Positions 1-44,895 of a DNA stretch of 44,895 nt are shown in pieces. Position numbers and translations under genes: made by a program. The DNA is from Escherichia phage VEc3: the sequence record NC_047899.1, one strand, 5' to 3'. Position 1 is the stretch's first letter; each line of letters opens with the position of its first letter. Under the pieces are notes generated by a model, which searched no databases, was not told the DNA's origin, and saw nothing but the letters and a program-made list of their open reading frames with translations.

Positions 1-304
1 CTCGCCCTCGCCCTCGCCGGGTTGTCCCCATAGGGTGGCCTGAGGGAATCCGTCGAAGACGGGCAGGGCTGATGTACTCCTTGTACTAGCTTAGTAGTAC
101 ACAAGGGCAGGCCGTACTAGTTAGCTGGTACAGCCTAGTCTTTGCTCATGTACTAGCAAGGTGGAACGCTGGAGAGCGCCTAGGACGGCCTAGGGCACGC
201 CTTAGTGTTGGACAAGGTGAATGCCTTAGTGAAGCCTCTTAGTGCATTCCTGAGGCCATTCAGGGCGTTTATGAGGTATTGACAGGGTGGGCGTGGGTGG
301 GCTA
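1..304. repeat. Left direct terminal repeat (DTR), 304 bp
   Basis: Positions 1-304 are repeated exactly at 44592-44895; begins with a CTCGCC x3 tract and contains GTACTAG and CTTAGTG short repeats. Confidence 0.95.
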
Positions 305-384
305 TCTGTTCGTTTCGCTAGCGCTCCACTCACAAGCCTGACGTGTACCTTAGGTACTACCTTATGCTATTACTTGATGGATAG

Positions 385-486
385 CTTAGGTTAACCTTAG
401 TGGACTACCTTAGTTAAAGCCTTAGTGCTTATCTTAGTAATAGCTTAGTAGTGTACCTTAGTAAGTCTTAGTGTCTTCTCTTAGTG
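385..486. repeat. Phased CTTAGT(G/A) short-repeat array, about 9 copies
   Basis: CTTAG cores at 385,396,409,421,433,444,457,467,480, spaced 10-13 bp (about one helical turn); further copies at 201,225,237 (inside DTR) and 629,663,699. Confidence 0.8.
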
Positions 487-632
487 ATTGCACATGCAAG
501 CATGTAAGATGCCATTAGGTCGCGGTCGGTAGACCGCTAAAGAAAGAGAATAGTAATAAGATGCAGTAGGAGGAACACCAGAAACCTAGCCAACCTAGCC
601 TATCCTAGCTCTGTATCTGTTGCTCTTCCTTA

Positions 633-648
633 GTCTCACATGTTAGAC
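633..648. repeat. Degenerate copy of the 16-bp palindrome (GTCTCACATGTtAGAC)
   Basis: One mismatch to the GTCTCACATGTGAGAC element found at six other sites. Confidence 0.6.
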
Positions 649-715
649 AACCTAGGTTTACCTTAGTAGTTGTGACATGTATCACATAAATAATCTATCT
701 TAGTGAAATTTAGTG

Positions 716-744
716 TTGACATAGGTAATAGCTGGTAGTACATT
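716..744 (+). promoter_or_regulatory. Candidate host sigma70 early promoter (TTGACA-N17-TACATT)
   Basis: Perfect -35 TTGACA at 716-721, 17-bp spacer, -10 TACATT at 739-744; same architecture as 1348-1376. Confidence 0.55.
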
Positions 745-777
745 ACAGTCATCGGGAGGCAACATAGCCAAACGGTA

Positions 778-807
778 GGTAACTAAGTTACCTTGCTCTT
801 TAACAAT
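778..807 (+). promoter_or_regulatory. Hairpin plus rrn-type boxA (GCTCTTTAACAAT), candidate Nus antitermination site 1
   Basis: Hairpin GGTAAC-TAA-GTTACC at 778-792 followed by GCTCTTTAACAAT at 795-807; matches the E. coli rrn boxA core. Confidence 0.6.
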
Positions 808-865
808 TTGCTTAGTGTAACCTGTGTATGCCGTGGTTAATTACTTATTGAATGAGGAATTAACT

Positions 866-964
866 ATGAATTACGAAAAACTGTATAAAGCCTATTACTA
901 TAACGCATTAGTGAGAGGAGAAGAGCCTTTGTCTTATGCTGAGTTTGTGGAGGCTTTATCATGA
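866..964 (+). CDS. Small early ORF (32 aa), hypothetical
   Basis: ATG at 866 preceded by GAGG; stop overlaps next start (ATGA); not in the supplied track (below length cutoff). Confidence 0.3.
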   Translation: MNYEKLYKAYYYNALVRGEEPLSYAEFVEALS

Positions 965-1137
965 CTCTAACTAACCGTGAACTATCCGTTCTCTTCACCT
1001 TGTTATGCTACATGATTCGTAACAACGAATTGCTTACAGATGACGAGTTAGCCTTGTATCACCGCTTTCTGAACGAAGGTTGGACCGATACAGTTAACCA
1101 GAAACGTGACCTGATGAAGGAGCTAACCAATGTTTAA
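961..1137 (+). CDS. Small early ORF (58 aa), hypothetical
   Basis: ATG at 961 overlapping upstream stop; ends overlapping the start of ORF 1130. Confidence 0.35.
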   Translation: MTLTNRELSVLFTLLCYMIRNNELLTDDELALYHRFLNEGWTDTVNQKRDLMKELTNV

Positions 1138-1339
1138 ACATGAGATTTACACGGATTGCAATAAATCGGCTAAAGCTATCTGCGATTTGTACAAGGCAGA
1201 ATGTCAGACGTACAACCTCAACGATGGTACTGAGATGTTTTATCTTCAGTTTGAAAGCAAGTTATCTCACAAACGAGTGATTAACAGCCTGAATCAACAC
1301 TCCTTGGAGTGGGAAGAAGTAAATAGCAATAAAGTTTAA
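1130..1339 (+). CDS. Hypothetical early protein (69 aa)
   Basis: Track ORF; translationally coupled to the upstream small ORF. Confidence 0.5.
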   Translation: MFKHEIYTDCNKSAKAICDLYKAECQTYNLNDGTEMFYLQFESKLSHKRVINSLNQHSLEWEEVNSNKV

Positions 1340-1347
1340 ATTAACTA

Positions 1348-1376
1348 TTGACAGCCACGGCATACAAGGTTACATT
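1348..1376 (+). promoter_or_regulatory. Candidate host sigma70 early promoter (TTGACA-N17-TACATT)
   Basis: -35 TTGACA at 1348-1353, 17-bp spacer, -10 TACATT at 1371-1376. Confidence 0.55.
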
Positions 1377-1383
1377 AAGCATC

Positions 1384-1422
1384 AAGACGGCGACGTCTTT
1401 AAACATCCCGCTCTTTAACAAT
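1384..1422 (+). promoter_or_regulatory. Hairpin plus rrn-type boxA, candidate antitermination site 2
   Basis: Hairpin AAGACG-GCGA-CGTCTT at 1384-1399, then GCTCTTTAACAAT at 1410-1422. Confidence 0.6.
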
Positions 1423-1464
1423 AAGGTTTGTGTCTTGATAGGCTAACTAACTAAGGTAATTATC

Positions 1465-1575
1465 ATGAAAGGTTTAATTTGTGTAGAACGTATGGTCAAT
1501 GGTAAACTTGAAATATTACCACTGGAAAACCAATCTAGCTTCAAAGAGTGGTATGGCTGTTTCTCACTGATTTAA
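1465..1575 (+). CDS. Small early ORF (36 aa), hypothetical
   Basis: ATG at 1465 with AAGG upstream; below track cutoff. Confidence 0.3.
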   Translation: MKGLICVERMVNGKLEILPLENQSSFKEWYGCFSLI

Positions 1576-1581
1576 GGTAAA

Positions 1582-1630
1582 GGCTGGCACTAGTCAGCCT
1601 ATCAAGGCGCAAACCAAGCTCTTTAACAAT
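1582..1630 (+). promoter_or_regulatory. Hairpin plus rrn-type boxA, candidate antitermination site 3
   Basis: Hairpin GGCTGGC-ACTAGT-CAGCC at 1582-1599, then GCTCTTTAACAAT at 1618-1630. Confidence 0.6.
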
Positions 1631-1726
1631 TTGGATGGTAGCTTCTTAGTCTGGATAGGTTAAACCTAGGGGATTCTCTTGAGTCTCCTATAATGTAACC
1701 TAACTAACTAAATGAGGATTAACAAC

Positions 1727-2080
1727 ATGGCTATGTCTAATATGACTTACTCTCAGGTTTACAACACTGCTCATGCTGCACTGGTTGAACGCGTATGGGA
1801 TGATGCCATTGATTGTATTGATAACGCACATGATGCAATCCATGAGGTAGCGGACAGTGCTGTACCAATCTATTATGCTGACATCTTCTCAGTGATGGCC
1901 AGTGAAGGCATCGACCACTTCTTCGAGGATTCTGGCTTAATGCCAGACACTAAGGATGTGACGGTCGTACTACAAGCCCGTATTTATGAACAACTCACCA
2001 TTGATTTATGGGAACGTGTTCAAGATATGATTGATGCGTACATCGATTCCGCTGAGGATTCAGAAGAAGAAGAGGAATAA
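1727..2080 (+). CDS. ocr: Ocr-like DNA mimic (T7 gp0.3 homolog), anti-restriction
   Basis: 117 aa from ATG 1727 (GAGGA RBS); begins MAMSNMTY and contains [15 protein letters not shown] and [13 protein letters not shown]...[15 protein letters not shown] blocks recalled from T7 Ocr; acidic tail DSEEEEE; track ORF start at 1712 is probably too early. Confidence 0.85.
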
Positions 2081-2082
2081 GA

Positions 2083-2196
2083 ATGGAAAAGCTATACAAC
2101 TTCATCTTTTCAGACGGTGTAACCCTGAAGTGTTCCCTACGATTCGCTCAGATTCGTGAGGAAGTGCTAGGTACTACATACAAACTATTTAGCTGA
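2083..2196 (+). CDS. Small early ORF (37 aa), hypothetical
   Basis: ATG 3 nt after the ocr stop; below track cutoff. Confidence 0.3.
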   Translation: MEKLYNFIFSDGVTLKCSLRFAQIREEVLGTTYKLFS

Positions 2197-2210
2197 CACT
2201 ATAAGAGAAG
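2187..2210 (+). promoter_or_regulatory. Phage-promoter-like element, variant ATTTAGCTGACACTATAAGAGAAG
   Basis: Matches the SP6-type promoter except the conserved +1 G is A. Confidence 0.35.
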
Positions 2211-2272
2211 GCTTAACAAGGCGTTGCTACGGTAGCGCCTGATTAAACTTTCACTTACTAGAGGTTAAAATT

Positions 2273-2398
2273 ATGAAACTATCGCCATCCGCTAAAGGCC
2301 TCATTGCAGAACTTAAAGACTCTTTGAGGAATCCAATCATTTGGGCACTTATCTACATACCTTATGGTATCTACCTATTTCACCTCATCACTGAGTAA
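2273..2398 (+). CDS. Small hydrophobic early protein (41 aa)
   Basis: ATG 2273 with GAGG upstream; hydrophobic C-terminal segment IIWALIYIPYGIYLFHLI. Confidence 0.35.
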   Translation: MKLSPSAKGLIAELKDSLRNPIIWALIYIPYGIYLFHLITE

Positions 2399-2430
2399 AT
2401 AGCCTATAGCCTACCTATGTGGGCTATGTG

Positions 2431-2453
2431 ATATTTACTTACACTATAAGGTG
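2431..2453 (+). promoter_or_regulatory. Phage-promoter-like element, variant ATATTTACTTACACTATAAGGTG
   Basis: Resembles the phage promoter but with A at +1 and TTAC for TGGA. Confidence 0.35.
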
Positions 2454-2459
2454 ATTAAT

Positions 2460-3383
2460 ATGACTACTGAAAACACCCTTCTGTCTGTTCGTGAAGCTGC
2501 AACCGCTGAAATCAAGCAGCACTTAGACAATATCGGCACTTCTTACATCAAAGTTGGCGCTTGTCTGAATGAATTACGCGGTGATTTCGAAGGTCAAAAA
2601 GACTTTTTAGCTTATGTAGAATCAGAGTTCGGCATCAAGAAAGCACAATGCTACAAGCTGATGAGTGTAGCCCGTGTCTTTGAAGGAGACGAACGCTTTA
2701 AAGGTGTGGCTATGCGTGTAATGCTGGCGCTTGTTCCTTTCGCTGATGAAAATATAATCATGGAGAAGGCCGCAGAACTCGCCGCAGAGGGCAAGCTGGA
2801 CACTAACGCCGTAAACGCCCTGATTGATCCTAAGAAAGAGACAAAGGCCGAGACGGTACAATCTAAGGTTGAGTCGGTAAAACCGCAGGAGAACGCGACT
2901 GAGGCCGCAGAAACTATGCAAGGACATGCAACCTTTGAGGATTTCATATTAGAGAAGGCGAAAGAGGAGCTACAAAGTGTGCCGCCAGCAAGTGAGTCTG
3001 GTAACGACGAATCCGCACCGTGGGAAGACAAAAGCAAGCAGGAAGACACAAAGGCAGCGCCACGGGATAACACGGCTAACACCGAGAGTGCCGCTATTGC
3101 TGGCCTTCTGGCACAAATTAAAGCACTGACCGAGCAATTACAGGCAGCTAATGACCGCATTGCCTCCTTAAGCAGCGCACGCGAAAGCAAGAAAGCAGCC
3201 GCGCCTATGCTGCCGCAATTCAAATCTTCCTGCTTCTATGCTCGCTTAGGTTTAAGCGCTGAGGAGGCAACGAAGAAAACAGCAGTTAACAAGGCACGCC
3301 GCGAACTGGTTAAGCTAGGCTACGGCGAAGGCCATGAAGCATGGCCCTTAATCTCTGAGGCAGTAGAAGAATTAACTAAGTAA
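2460..3383 (+). CDS. Early protein (307 aa): conserved N-terminal domain, acidic low-complexity linker, coiled-coil, C-terminal domain
   Basis: Track ORF 2451-3383; ATG 2460 preferred (AAGG 8 nt upstream); occupies the slot of T7 gp0.7 but has no kinase motifs; N-terminal domain resembles a DUF3102-type phage domain (by recall). Confidence 0.7.
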   Translation: MTTENTLLSVREAATAEIKQHLDNIGTSYIKVGACLNELRGDFEGQKDFLAYVESEFGIKKAQCYKLMSVARVFEGDERFKGVAMRVMLALVPFADENIIMEKAAELAAEGKLDTNAVNALIDPKKETKAETVQSKVESVKPQENATEAAETMQGHATFEDFILEKAKEELQSVPPASESGNDESAPWEDKSKQEDTKAAPRDNTANTESAAIAGLLAQIKALTEQLQAANDRIASLSSARESKKAAAPMLPQFKSSCFYARLGLSAEEATKKTAVNKARRELVKLGYGEGHEAWPLISEAVEELTK

Positions 3384-3446
3384 CCTTATCGGTGGCATCT
3401 TCTTAGGTGTCACCTATTAAGGTTTCTTTCACTAGGAGTAAACAAG

Positions 3447-6074
3447 ATGCAAGACCTACACGCTATTCAACTTCAACTTGAAGAAGAAATGTTTAACGGC
3501 GGTATCCGTCGCTTTGAAGCGGACCAACAACGCCAGATTGCATCCGGTAATGAATCAGACACGGCATGGAATCGCCGCTTATTGTCCGAGTTAATCGCGC
3601 CAATGGCTGAAGGCATTCAGGCATACAAGGAAGAGTATGAAGGTAAAAGAGGCCGTGCACCGCGTGCATTAGCTTTCATTAACTGCGTAGAAAACGAAGT
3701 GGCAGCATATATCACGATGAAAATCGTTATGGATATGCTGAACACGGATGTAACCTTGCAGGCTATAGCCATGAATGTAGCTGACCGCATTGAGGACCAA
3801 GTACGTTTTAGCAAGCTGGAAGGTCACGCCGCCAAATACTTTGAGAAAGTTAAGAAGTCACTTAAGGCAAGTAAGACTAAATCATATCGCCATGCGCACA
3901 ACGTAGCGGTCGTGGCTGAGAAGTCAGTAGCTGACCGTGACGCTGATTTCTCTCGCTGGGAGGCGTGGCCTAAAGATACCTTGCTACAAATTGGTATGAC
4001 CTTGCTAGAAATACTGGAAAATAGTGTATTCTTCAATGGTCAGCCTGTCTTTCTTCGCACCTTGCGCACTAATGGTGGCAAGCATGGCGTTTACTACTTA
4101 CAGACTAGCGAACACGTGGGTGAATGGATAACTGCATTTAAAGAGCACGTAGCTCAGCTGAGTCCAGCCTATGCGCCTTGCGTTATTCCTCCTCGTCCGT
4201 GGGTTTCTCCGTTTAATGGTGGCTTCCATACTGAGAAAGTAGCAAGCCGTATTCGTCTAGTAAAAGGCAATCGTGAGCACGTCCGCAAGCTGACCAAAAA
4301 GCAAATGCCAGCGGTTTACAAGGCTGTTAACGCTTTGCAGGCGACTAAGTGGCAGGTTAATAAAGAGGTTTTGCAGGTAGTAGAGGACGTTATTCATCTC
4401 GACCTTGGTTATGGTGTGCCTTCCTTTAAACCACTCATCGACCGTGAGAACAAGCCAGCTAATCCAGTGCCGTTAGAGTTCCAGCACCTGCGAGGCCGTG
4501 AATTGAAAGAGATGCTAACACCGGAGCAATGGCAGGCCTTCATCAACTGGAAGGGTGAATGTACTAAGCTGTATACCGCTGAGACTAAGCGCGGCAGCAA
4601 GTCGGCGGCGACCGTCCGCATGGTAGGACAGGCCCGTAAATACAGCCAGTTTGACGCTATTTATTTTGTATATGCACTGGATAGCCGTTCACGCGTTTAT
4701 GCGCAATCTAGCACGCTCTCGCCGCAATCAAACGACTTAGGCAAGGCATTGCTCCGTTTTACCGAAGGGCAGCGTCTTGATAGCGCTGAGGCGCTTAAGT
4801 GGTTTTTGGTGAACGGGGCGAATAACTGGGGTTGGGATAAGAAAACTTTTGACGTGCGCACCTCTAACGTGCTGGATGGCGAATTTCAAGACATGTGCCG
4901 CGACATTGCAGCCGATCCGCTGACCTTCACTCAATGGGTAAATGCTGATTCCCCTTACGGCTTCCTTGCATGGTGCTTTGAATATGCGCGTTATCTGGAT
5001 GCACTGGATGAAGGCACGCAAGACCAATTCATGACGCATCTACCCGTCCATCAAGACGGTAGTTGCTCTGGTATCCAGCACTATAGCGCGATGTTACGCG
5101 ATGAAGTAGGTGCGAAAGCAGTAAACCTTAAGCCTTCTGACTTCCCTCAAGATATTTATGGCGCAGTCGCGCAGGTTGTTATCCAGAAGAATTACGCCTA
5201 CATGAATGCAGACGATGCAGTGACTTTCACATCTGGAAGCGTCACACTTACAGGTGCAGAACTGCGTAGCATGGCTAGTGCGTGGGATATGATAGGAATC
5301 ACTCGCGGATTGACCAAAAAGCCCGTAATGACACTACCTTATGGCAGCACACGTCTAACCTGCCGTGAATCAGTGATTGATTATATCGTTGATTTGGAAG
5401 AAAAAGAGGCCCAACGAGCTATTGCGGAAGGGCGTACCGCCAATCCTGTACATCCTTTTGATAATGACCGTAAGGACAGCCTGACACCTAGTGCAGCTTA
5501 TAACTATATGACGGCTTTAATCTGGCCTTCTATTTCGGAAGTGGTTAAAGCTCCTATAGTGGCAATGAAAATGATTCGTCAGCTTGCCCGTTTCGCAGCT
5601 AAAAGGAATGAAGGCTTAGAGTATACCTTGCCTACTGGCTTCATCTTGCAACAAAAGATTATGGCTACCGACATGCTACGCGTATCCACTTGCTTGATGG
5701 GTGAAATCAAGATGAGTCTACAGATTGAGACTGATGTAGTGGATGAAACGGCTATGATGGGCGCTGCTGCTCCTAACTTTGTTCACGGGCATGATGCTAG
5801 TCATCTCATCCTGACTGTATGTGACCTCGTTGACAAGGGCATTACATCCATCGCAGTCATCCATGATTCTTTCGGTACTCACGCAGGCCGTACAGCCGAT
5901 CTACGTGATAGTCTAAGGGCAGAAATGGTGAAGATGTATCAAGGCCGTAATGCCCTGCAAAGCCTGTTAGATGAGCATGAAGAACGCTGGTTAGTAGACA
6001 CCGGAATCCAAGTGCCAGAGCAAGGAGAGTTTGACCTTAACGAAATCTTAGTATCTGACTATTGCTTCGCATAA
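3447..6074 (+). CDS. DNA-directed RNA polymerase, single-subunit, SP6-type
   Basis: 875 aa; begins [32 protein letters not shown] and contains [27 protein letters not shown] and IHDSFGTH motifs; ends ...DYCFA like T7-family RNAPs. Confidence 0.95.
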
Positions 6075-44591: not shown

Positions 44592-44895
44592 CTCGCCCTC
44601 GCCCTCGCCGGGTTGTCCCCATAGGGTGGCCTGAGGGAATCCGTCGAAGACGGGCAGGGCTGATGTACTCCTTGTACTAGCTTAGTAGTACACAAGGGCA
44701 GGCCGTACTAGTTAGCTGGTACAGCCTAGTCTTTGCTCATGTACTAGCAAGGTGGAACGCTGGAGAGCGCCTAGGACGGCCTAGGGCACGCCTTAGTGTT
44801 GGACAAGGTGAATGCCTTAGTGAAGCCTCTTAGTGCATTCCTGAGGCCATTCAGGGCGTTTATGAGGTATTGACAGGGTGGGCGTGGGTGGGCTA
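44592..44895. repeat. Right direct terminal repeat (DTR), 304 bp
   Basis: Exact copy of 1-304 at the window end; typical of T7-like linear genomes. Confidence 0.95.

Follow-up and report, generated by a model that had tools for sequence, protein, structure and literature searches.

We argue that the early region of Escherichia phage VEc3 is probably organized in modules of the kind found in ribosomal RNA (rrn) operons. Through such modules, early transcription would be antiterminated with the help of Nus factors, and RNase III would cut out the early mRNA cassettes. The argument starts from sequence elements, their conservation among relatives and the covariation of the helices that they form, all of which are observed directly. 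Two predicted host promoters and an inverted match between them, reported in an earlier note on this DNA, turn out to belong to this larger arrangement.

Genome and early region

The window, meaning the whole stretch of DNA that was analyzed, is the complete linear genome of an SP6/K1E-like podophage (Vectrevirus). It is 44.9 kb long with direct terminal repeats of 304 bp. Its RNA polymerase is of the SP6 type (875 aa), and the left 2.5 kb has 89-96% identity to Vectrevirus phages of the SP6 group (Sem1/3/4, K1E and others). The promoters, the boxA copies and the long-range helices described below all lie in the left-end early region, 5' of ocr. The genes in this part of the genome are as follows.

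866-964, 961-1137 and 1130-1339, + strand: cassette 1, three small overlapping early ORFs (PHROGs 2061, 9275 and 6403, all of unknown function)
1465-1575, + strand: cassette 2, a 36-aa ORF taken from the ORF list and bracketed by helix 2
1727-2080, + strand: ocr (anti-restriction), the first gene 3' of the modules (PHROG 2568, E = 8e-49)

A PHROG search with the 36-aa ORF at 1465-1575 gave no match. The position homologous to cassette 2 is bracketed in the same way in K1-5.

Promoters P1 and P2

The earlier note placed two early host promoters of identical architecture in this region. Both sites are exact and on the + strand.

716-744, + strand: P1, a predicted early sigma-70 promoter, TTGACA-N17-TACATT (10/12 in the promoter scan; predicted start A751)
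1348-1376, + strand: P2, a predicted sigma-70 promoter, TTGACA-N17-TACATT, inside the trailer arm of helix 1 (10/12 in the promoter scan; predicted start about 1384)

A sigma-70 promoter was defined here by hexamers near TTGACA/TATAAT and a spacer of 16-18 bp. The full pattern TTGACA-N17-TACATT occurs twice in the 44.9 kb genome on either strand, against 0.01 occurrences expected from shuffles. The annotated T7 A1 promoter (start at T7 498) aligns with P1 across the -10 and the initial transcribed sequence (ACAGnCATCGnGAGG), and it is this alignment that puts the P1 start at A751. P1 can be taken on this evidence as the homologue of T7 A1, and SP6 has the same promoter.

Relatives were sampled as 20 loci retrieved with the N-terminus of the RNA polymerase. 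P1 is often swapped among them for other strong promoters (TTGACA-N17-TACTAT, TTGACA-N16-TATTAT or TTGACA-N17-CATAAT), whereas P2 stays. It is kept as TTGAC(A/T)-N17/18-TACATT in 19/20 of the related loci and is always within the trailer arm, even where the arm sequence differs. The -35 of P2 lies almost wholly outside helix 1 and yet it is conserved, which argues for genuine promoter function. The two sites are thus good sigma-70 candidates, and reading them as early host promoters seems sound. The idea that their twin architecture arose by duplication does not hold up. P1 and P2 do not appear to be duplicates of each other, because their spacers share 1/17 bases. Their flanks agree at 11/43 positions, which is the random level, and the replacement of P1 in relatives that keep P2 points the same way.

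The inverted match is one arm of a long-range helix

The spacer of P2 was also said to recur inverted at 825-842. The match is real, but the coordinates were wrong by 6 nt. The quoted string AACCTGTGTATGCCGTGG is located at 819-836, and 825-842 instead reads TGTATGCCGTGGTTAATT. AACCTGTGTATGCCGTGG matches the P2 spacer with a 1-nt indel. It is part of something longer, for a repeat search finds that the inverted pairs 809-823/1367-1381 and 825-836/1355-1366 abut each other. In RNA the two make up a single duplex of 29 bp, helix 1, in which 809-838 pairs with 1353-1381. It has a bulged G824, 2 G.U pairs and an energy of -48.1 kcal/mol, and it covers both the spacer and the -10 hexamer of P2.

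809-838, + strand: helix 1 leader (5') arm, which holds the inverted string at 819-836 and a weak boxC-like CCTGTGTATG
1353-1381, + strand: helix 1 trailer (3') arm, which pairs with 809-838 and is seen in the MFE fold of 750-1740

It is worth considering what else this match could be. One can imagine that 819-836 is the relic of a duplicated and inverted promoter, that it is a weak leftward promoter, or that it belongs to a DNA inverted repeat to which a regulator of P1 and P2 binds. The reverse complement of the 5' arm does contain TACACT and TTAACC, and P1 and P2 do have the same hexamers at the same spacing. However, the inverted element in VEc3 is TTAACC-N15-TACACT, so its spacer of 15 nt is too short for the range of 16-18, and this leftward element was not called in the promoter scan. 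The degenerate leftward promoter of the earlier note can be set aside on these grounds. The leader arm resembles an inverted -10 (AGTGTA) because it is paired with a trailer arm carrying the TACATT of P2, and the TACACT of the leftward element is simply the complement of that TACATT with one G.U pair. A relic of duplication does not sit well with P1 and P2 spacers that are 1/17 identical. The complementarity reaches 29 bp, which is past any promoter. Helix 2, described in the next section, has no promoter and has the same layout next to a boxA. The arms co-vary in relatives, and this includes replacement of whole arms. Finally, G.U cells far outnumber A.C cells, as pairing in RNA rather than DNA would have it. 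We regard a promoter relic or an operator as extremely improbable. The regulated inverted repeat comes nearest among the readings that were offered, except that the covariation, the excess of G.U over A.C, the adjacency to boxA and the second analogous helix favor a + strand RNA helix over protein-bound DNA.

Three boxA copies and a second helix

The leader arm of helix 1 lies just downstream of a boxA. Exact copies of GCTCTTTAACAA occur 3 times in the whole genome (795, 1410 and 1618) against 0.33 expected. All three are intergenic and on the + strand, and they are confined to 795-1629, downstream of P1/P2. The published BoxA consensus is GYTCTTTAANA (PMC5725501).

795-806, + strand: boxA1, GCTCTTTAACAA, exact, fits GYTCTTTAANA
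1410-1421, + strand: boxA2, GCTCTTTAACAA, exact, fits GYTCTTTAANA
1618-1629, + strand: boxA3, GCTCTTTAACAA, exact, fits GYTCTTTAANA

Judged by its sequence, GCTCTTTAACAA is a boxA of the ribosomal-operon type, identical to the rrn boxA of E. coli. The leader arms begin 2-3 nt 3' of boxA.

A second long-range inverted pair, which the earlier note missed, follows boxA2. It joins 1425-1449 to 1591-1615 over 25 nt that are 88% complementary.

1425-1449, + strand: helix 2 leader arm, seen in the MFE fold
1591-1615, + strand: helix 2 trailer arm, ending 2 nt before boxA3

Helix 2 has 20-25 bp and an energy of -44 kcal/mol, brackets the 36-aa ORF at 1465-1575 and contains no promoter. An unconstrained fold of 750-1740 yields both long-range helices (MFE -284 kcal/mol, z = -8.2).

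The third boxA is arranged differently. A search for a long-range partner for boxA3 gave weak matches only, and a local hairpin follows it instead.

1642-1717, + strand: local irregular hairpin between boxA3 and ocr (fold z = -2.9), at the position of the R0.3 RNase III site of T7/T3

One further inverted pair, 651-665/1656-1670, was judged to be chance; its upstream half is located before P1 in an area of CTTAGT repeats. An Rfam search of 1-3500 returned chance-level matches only (a miRNA and snoRNAs), with no family spanning the boxA or helix elements.

Layout and covariation in relatives

The same layout is found across the relatives. The early region has 1-3 exact boxA copies in 20/20 of them, on the + strand only. 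Every non-terminal boxA in these 20 relatives has a complementary arm 140-750 nt downstream, directly before the next boxA. The terminal boxA is followed by a local hairpin. In two loci, L006 and L008, the terminal boxA seemed to have long-range partners at about -31 kcal/mol, but these were put down to chance.

Phages of E. coli, Salmonella, Klebsiella, Pectobacterium and Pseudomonas share this layout with unrelated arms that co-vary. There are at least 5 unrelated families of arm sequence. Cognate arm duplexes have a mean of -43.4 kcal/mol, compared to -18.7 for arms taken from other families. One module more is found in a Klebsiella phage similar to K1-ULIP33 (L018); the arm of this added module is different, and its trailer again carries TTGACA-N18-TACATT. 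The arms of Pectobacterium PP1 (L020) and Pseudomonas phage Achelous (L128) are unrelated, and here too there is a promoter in the trailer arm: a weaker TTGCAT-N17-TACATT in the former and TTGACA-N17-TATCAT in the latter.

Covariation was examined at two levels. With 17 distinct modules aligned, 97.5% of the cells are paired, versus 48% when shuffled and 34-40% when slid, but the alignment was registered by pairing and so the percentage paired is inflated. In this same alignment, registered by pairing from the first pair, 14/14 pairs have changed on both sides. The natural alignment of the helix 1 family has position 829:1362 as U-A in 8 sequences and as A-U in 6. This is the sole clear double compensatory change within the family. 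Three further changes preserve a wobble or restore a Watson-Crick pair, and an inserted T fills the G824 bulge in SP6 and in one other relative (L015). Two sequences of the family have one disruptive mismatch each.

The pairing also has a polarity. There are 19 G.U cells versus 3 A.C cells, counted over sequences that are not independent. The + strand duplex is the more stable one in 26/32 cases, by a modest gap (-44.5 versus -40.7 kcal/mol) and again over non-independent sequences. The G.U excess and the duplex stability together lend modest favor to pairing in the + strand RNA over a symmetry of the DNA.

Conserved arms around variable cassettes raise another scenario. The segments made of boxA and arm could mainly be patches of DNA homology, or cassette boundaries, that let early genes be swapped by recombination, and any RNA pairing would then be incidental. 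There is a precedent of sorts in the promoter-early stem-loop (PeSL) modules of T4-type phages, which are repeated units of a promoter and a local stem-loop between small variable early ORFs and fit cassette shuffling. The arms in the SP6-like phages are far better conserved than the sequence between them, and conserved arms flanking variable cassettes are equally expected if they are linkers. Relatives place the arms of helix 1 between 423 and 753 nt apart, so the cassette content differs. The sequence 5' of the first boxA is a mosaic among relatives, which is in line with exchange at these points. However, linkers do not need to be complementary to each other or inverted. The unrelated arm families all stay complementary, and the U-A to A-U compensation and the bulge-filling insertion both keep the pairing. 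Without exception the arms begin 2-3 nt downstream of boxA. They also lie on opposite sides of a cassette and adjoin boxA, in contrast to the local stem-loops of PeSL. We think it quite unlikely that recombination is the main role of these segments. It must be noted that a role as recombination linkers is plausibly compatible with an RNA function; it does not replace one.

Comparison with known systems

The closest likeness of the long-range RNA helices is in the rrn operons. The rrn layout has boxB-boxA-boxC after the rrn promoter P2 and a second set before 23S (PMC10250234). Its leader-trailer helices are 25-40 bp and are cut by RNase III (PMC10250234). The E. coli K-12 rrnB leader reads cacTGCTCTTTAACAATTTatcagacaatCTGTGTgggcac and its complement gtgctcacacagattgtctgata is just 3' of 16S. 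The region around boxA1 in the phage reads cctTGCTCTTTAACAATTTgcttagtgtaacCTGTGTatgccgtgg, in which 16 bases are identical to the rrnB leader, and TGCTCTTTAACAATTT at boxA1 is common to both. In each system a promoter stands 25-45 nt 5' of boxA, and boxA leads at once into the 5' strand of a long helix, with the complementary strand on the far side of the enclosed unit. Both have co-varying helices of 20-30 bp. A new boxA comes after the first trailer in the phage, as it does in the 16S-23S spacer (PMC10250234). The phage differs from rrn in what it encloses, since its units are protein-coding cassettes of 110-480 nt and not rRNA. It also has a sigma-70 promoter within a trailer arm, up to three tandem modules in 900 bp, no conserved boxB and a weak match to boxC.

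T7-type phages have a part of this arrangement. The identical boxA 12-mer occurs once each in T7 (813), T3 (781) and phiYeO3-12 (915), about 30 nt 5' of R0.3. The R0.3 RNase III site is annotated in the T3 and phiYeO3-12 records and is not in the T7 record. The boxA of these phages lies between A3 and R0.3, and its counterpart in VEc3 is boxA3 with its local hairpin and ocr. The T7-type phages have this single boxA, and their RNase III sites are local hairpins only. VEc3 differs in that a gene-enclosing long-range helix comes after 2/3 of its boxA copies, and in having a promoter within a helix arm. The GenBank/RefSeq records of T7, T3, phiYeO3-12, SP6 (two records) and K1-5 carry no boxA annotation; they have promoters and/or RNase III sites, or nothing.

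The nut sites of lambdoid phages are a more distant parallel. A BoxA in the nascent RNA recruits NusB/NusE there, which is what we predict for VEc3, and the 12-mer boxA is also found in many prophage-like contigs. However, the order in nut sites is boxA-boxB, the phage N protein is needed on boxB, and there is no leader-trailer helix. Neither an N homologue nor a conserved boxB is evident in VEc3.

A proposed mechanism

In rrn operons boxA is both necessary and sufficient for formation of the rrnTAC (PMC10250234). In a current model NusB holds on to boxA, so that the leader strand is still at the RNA exit when the trailer comes out (PMC10250234). In recent single-molecule work the assembled rrnTAC made elongation twice as fast, suppressed termination by Rho and strongly stimulated the co-transcriptional cutting of the leader-trailer helix by RNase III (bioRxiv 10.64898/2026.03.17.712431). 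By analogy we infer Nus binding, RNase III cleavage and a physiological benefit in the phage.

Host RNA polymerase would enter each module from a sigma-70 promoter (P1, or in the second module P2) and transcribe boxA, then the leader arm, the cassette and the trailer arm, up to the next boxA. The boxA would recruit NusB/NusE and the other host Nus factors to make early transcription fast and resistant to Rho, as in rrn. With boxA tethered to the polymerase, the leader arm could wait at the RNA exit for the trailer arm. The arms would then pair as a leader-trailer helix of 20-30 bp, and host RNase III would cut it to excise the cassette mRNAs with their ends still paired. The following boxA would reload the complex, much like the boxA in the 16S-23S spacer. 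At the last boxA, before ocr, a local hairpin of the T7 R0.3 type would take the place of a long-range helix. Transcripts from P2 are predicted to start at about 1384, just past the trailer arm and 26 nt before boxA2, and so would be made without that arm.

Two points from T7 bear on the possible benefit. When the host polymerase transcribes the early genes of T7, it also draws the genome into the cell, and ends processed by RNase III stabilize the early mRNAs of T7. We would extend both points to SP6-type phages by analogy.

One can accept the helices and still doubt the enzymes. The helices could be real RNA structures that shield ends, insulate the fold of a cassette or block Rho loading, all without RNase III or Nus, and GCTCTTTAACAA could be a signal for some other protein or for translation. 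The covariation supports helices regardless of the enzyme. Even with Nus the outcome could differ, since a Nus complex at BoxA can repress, as it does at suhB (PMC5725501). On the other hand, the 12-mer is the rrn BoxA and is invariant from E. coli phages to Pseudomonas phages. It lies directly 5' of the annotated RNase III site in T3 and phiYeO3-12, with a matching arrangement in T7. At 20-30 bp, the helices have the size of those that RNase III cuts in rrn (PMC10250234). Over 45 nt separate each boxA copy from the start codon that follows, which sets this arrangement apart from the suhB type. We consider helices that act apart from RNase III and Nus unlikely, though they deserve some weight.

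Taken to its full extent, Nus and RNase III processing on the rrn pattern suggests a larger claim. The SP6-like phages and some autographiviruses of Pseudomonas and Pectobacterium may have copied the whole logic of the rRNA operon: a boxA-loaded rrnTAC, delivery of a tethered arm, RNase III excision of end-paired cassettes and promoters in trailer arms. These promoters would bring in additional polymerases, each starting right at the following boxA. We put this claim forward tentatively, as an idea that falls a little short of probable.

Novelty and significance

The rrn boxA, leader-trailer helices and the RNase III sites of T7 are already known. What seems new is their tandem combination around protein-coding cassettes and the promoter embedded in a trailer arm. 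We found no paper in the open-access full-text literature that links boxA to T7-like or SP6-like early regions, although an earlier mention may exist in the original SP6 and K1-5 genome papers. One article mentions P22-type antitermination proteins only (PMC4837284).

If the proposed mechanism is true, leader-trailer processing would be seen for the first time to act on protein-coding cassettes. A lytic phage would be borrowing host ribosomal antitermination and RNase III for its anti-defence and takeover genes, and it would do so without an antiterminator of its own. Early expression, and possibly genome entry, would depend on host nusB, nusE, suhB and rnc. The mechanism would also explain why SP6/K1E-type therapeutic phages have long, highly conserved intergenic regions at their left end.

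There would be practical uses as well. To our knowledge, the boxA-tether model has so far been studied only on rRNAs of 1.5-3 kb. The phage modules would offer compact natural loops of 110-480 nt for testing how a boxA tether delivers its arm in the rrnTAC. The promoter, boxA and helix could serve as modular parts for phage engineering. More generally, the phage would show that the same DNA can serve as a promoter and as an arm of an RNA helix, a constraint that annotation pipelines currently miss.

Elements resembling boxB and boxC

Two small hairpins lie 5' of boxA copies and are candidates for boxB-like elements.

777-793, + strand: small hairpin of 7 bp with a 3-nt loop, just 5' of boxA1 at the rrn boxB position
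1385-1399, + strand: possible weak hairpin AAGACG-CGA-CGTCTT between the helix 1 trailer arm and boxA2, a weak fold in a segment that is variable among relatives

The segment upstream of boxA in which these candidates lie is not conserved in relatives, and one study reports that rrn can do without boxB (PMC10250234). The boxC-like CCUGUGUAUG, 14 nt after boxA, is a weak match at 7/10 to UCUGUGUGGG. Most relatives have CCUAUGUAUG there, and other arm families go without it. The structure of the helix is reported to matter more than the sequence of boxC (PMC10250234).

boxA and long-range arms in other phages

The arrangement of a boxA, a leader arm, a gene cassette, a complementary trailer arm and the next boxA can also be looked for in other phages and viral contigs. 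Pseudomonas phage Achelous (MH113814) has 3 boxA sites within 798-1600. Its arms form a 31-bp helix of -60.7 kcal/mol, and TTGACA-N17-TATCAT lies within its trailer arm. Thus the E. coli-type boxA 12-mer is used unaltered in a Pseudomonas phage.

An unrelated 99-kb viral contig, L049 (IMGVR_UViG_3300035492_000062), has 3 sites matching the BoxA consensus within 2973-4000. Downstream of two of the three lie complementary arms that pair over a long range, at -29 and -39 kcal/mol. A search of this contig against the phage collection gave no match. The boxA-arm design may therefore reach beyond the Autographiviridae.

The sequence AGGACGCTT(A/C)GCTCTTTAACAATCTGG is common to many prophage-like IMG/VR contigs (including L030, L065, L087, L088, L090, L097, L099, L118, L122 and L129). 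This is presumably a lambdoid or P22-type nut boxA plus a conserved upstream flank.

Genome ends and the region upstream of P1

VEc3 has a 304-bp direct terminal repeat with identical copies at 1-304 and 44592-44895, so the window is a complete linear genome. Two features precede P1, the early sigma-70 promoter at 716-744.

90-715, + strand: closely packed copies of a heptamer-like motif, CTTAGT(G/A), forming an array, from repeat and motif scans
672-701: weaker promoter-like site, GTGACA-N18-TATCTT, 44 nt 5' of P1, from a promoter scan

The motif scan counts 35 copies of CTTAGT(G/A) genome-wide, and 15 of them are 5' of P1. A 16th is at 811, within the leader arm of helix 1, the predicted long-range RNA pairing. 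The minus strand of the first 900 nt has a single copy. The array is reminiscent of the short-repeat arrays beside the terminal repeat of T7.

The first half of the promoter-like site is a partial palindrome (GTGACATGTATCAC). The same segment is also found 5' of differing P1 variants in SP6 and the related loci L002, L006, L007 and L011. Since the variants behind it differ among relatives, this segment is kept independently of P1.

Phage-polymerase promoters after ocr

2188-2212, 2433-2455, ~9741 and ~18079: SP6-type phage promoter cores, by motif match
2196-2266: strong, almost perfect hairpin directly 3' of the first phage promoter
2394-2439: inverted repeat (21-nt arms, 4-nt gap) just 5' of the second, from a repeat search

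The core sequences in the window are TTTAGCTGACACTATAAGAGAAGG and TTTACTTACACTATAAGG. They occur from 2188 onward, and therefore phage-polymerase promoters begin only ~100 nt past ocr. The hairpin may serve to process or stabilise phage-polymerase transcripts. It came to light only through a spurious miRNA-like Rfam hit (25 bits versus a gathering score of 97). Inside the inverted repeat, 2405-2428 is a terminator-like stem with a T-run.
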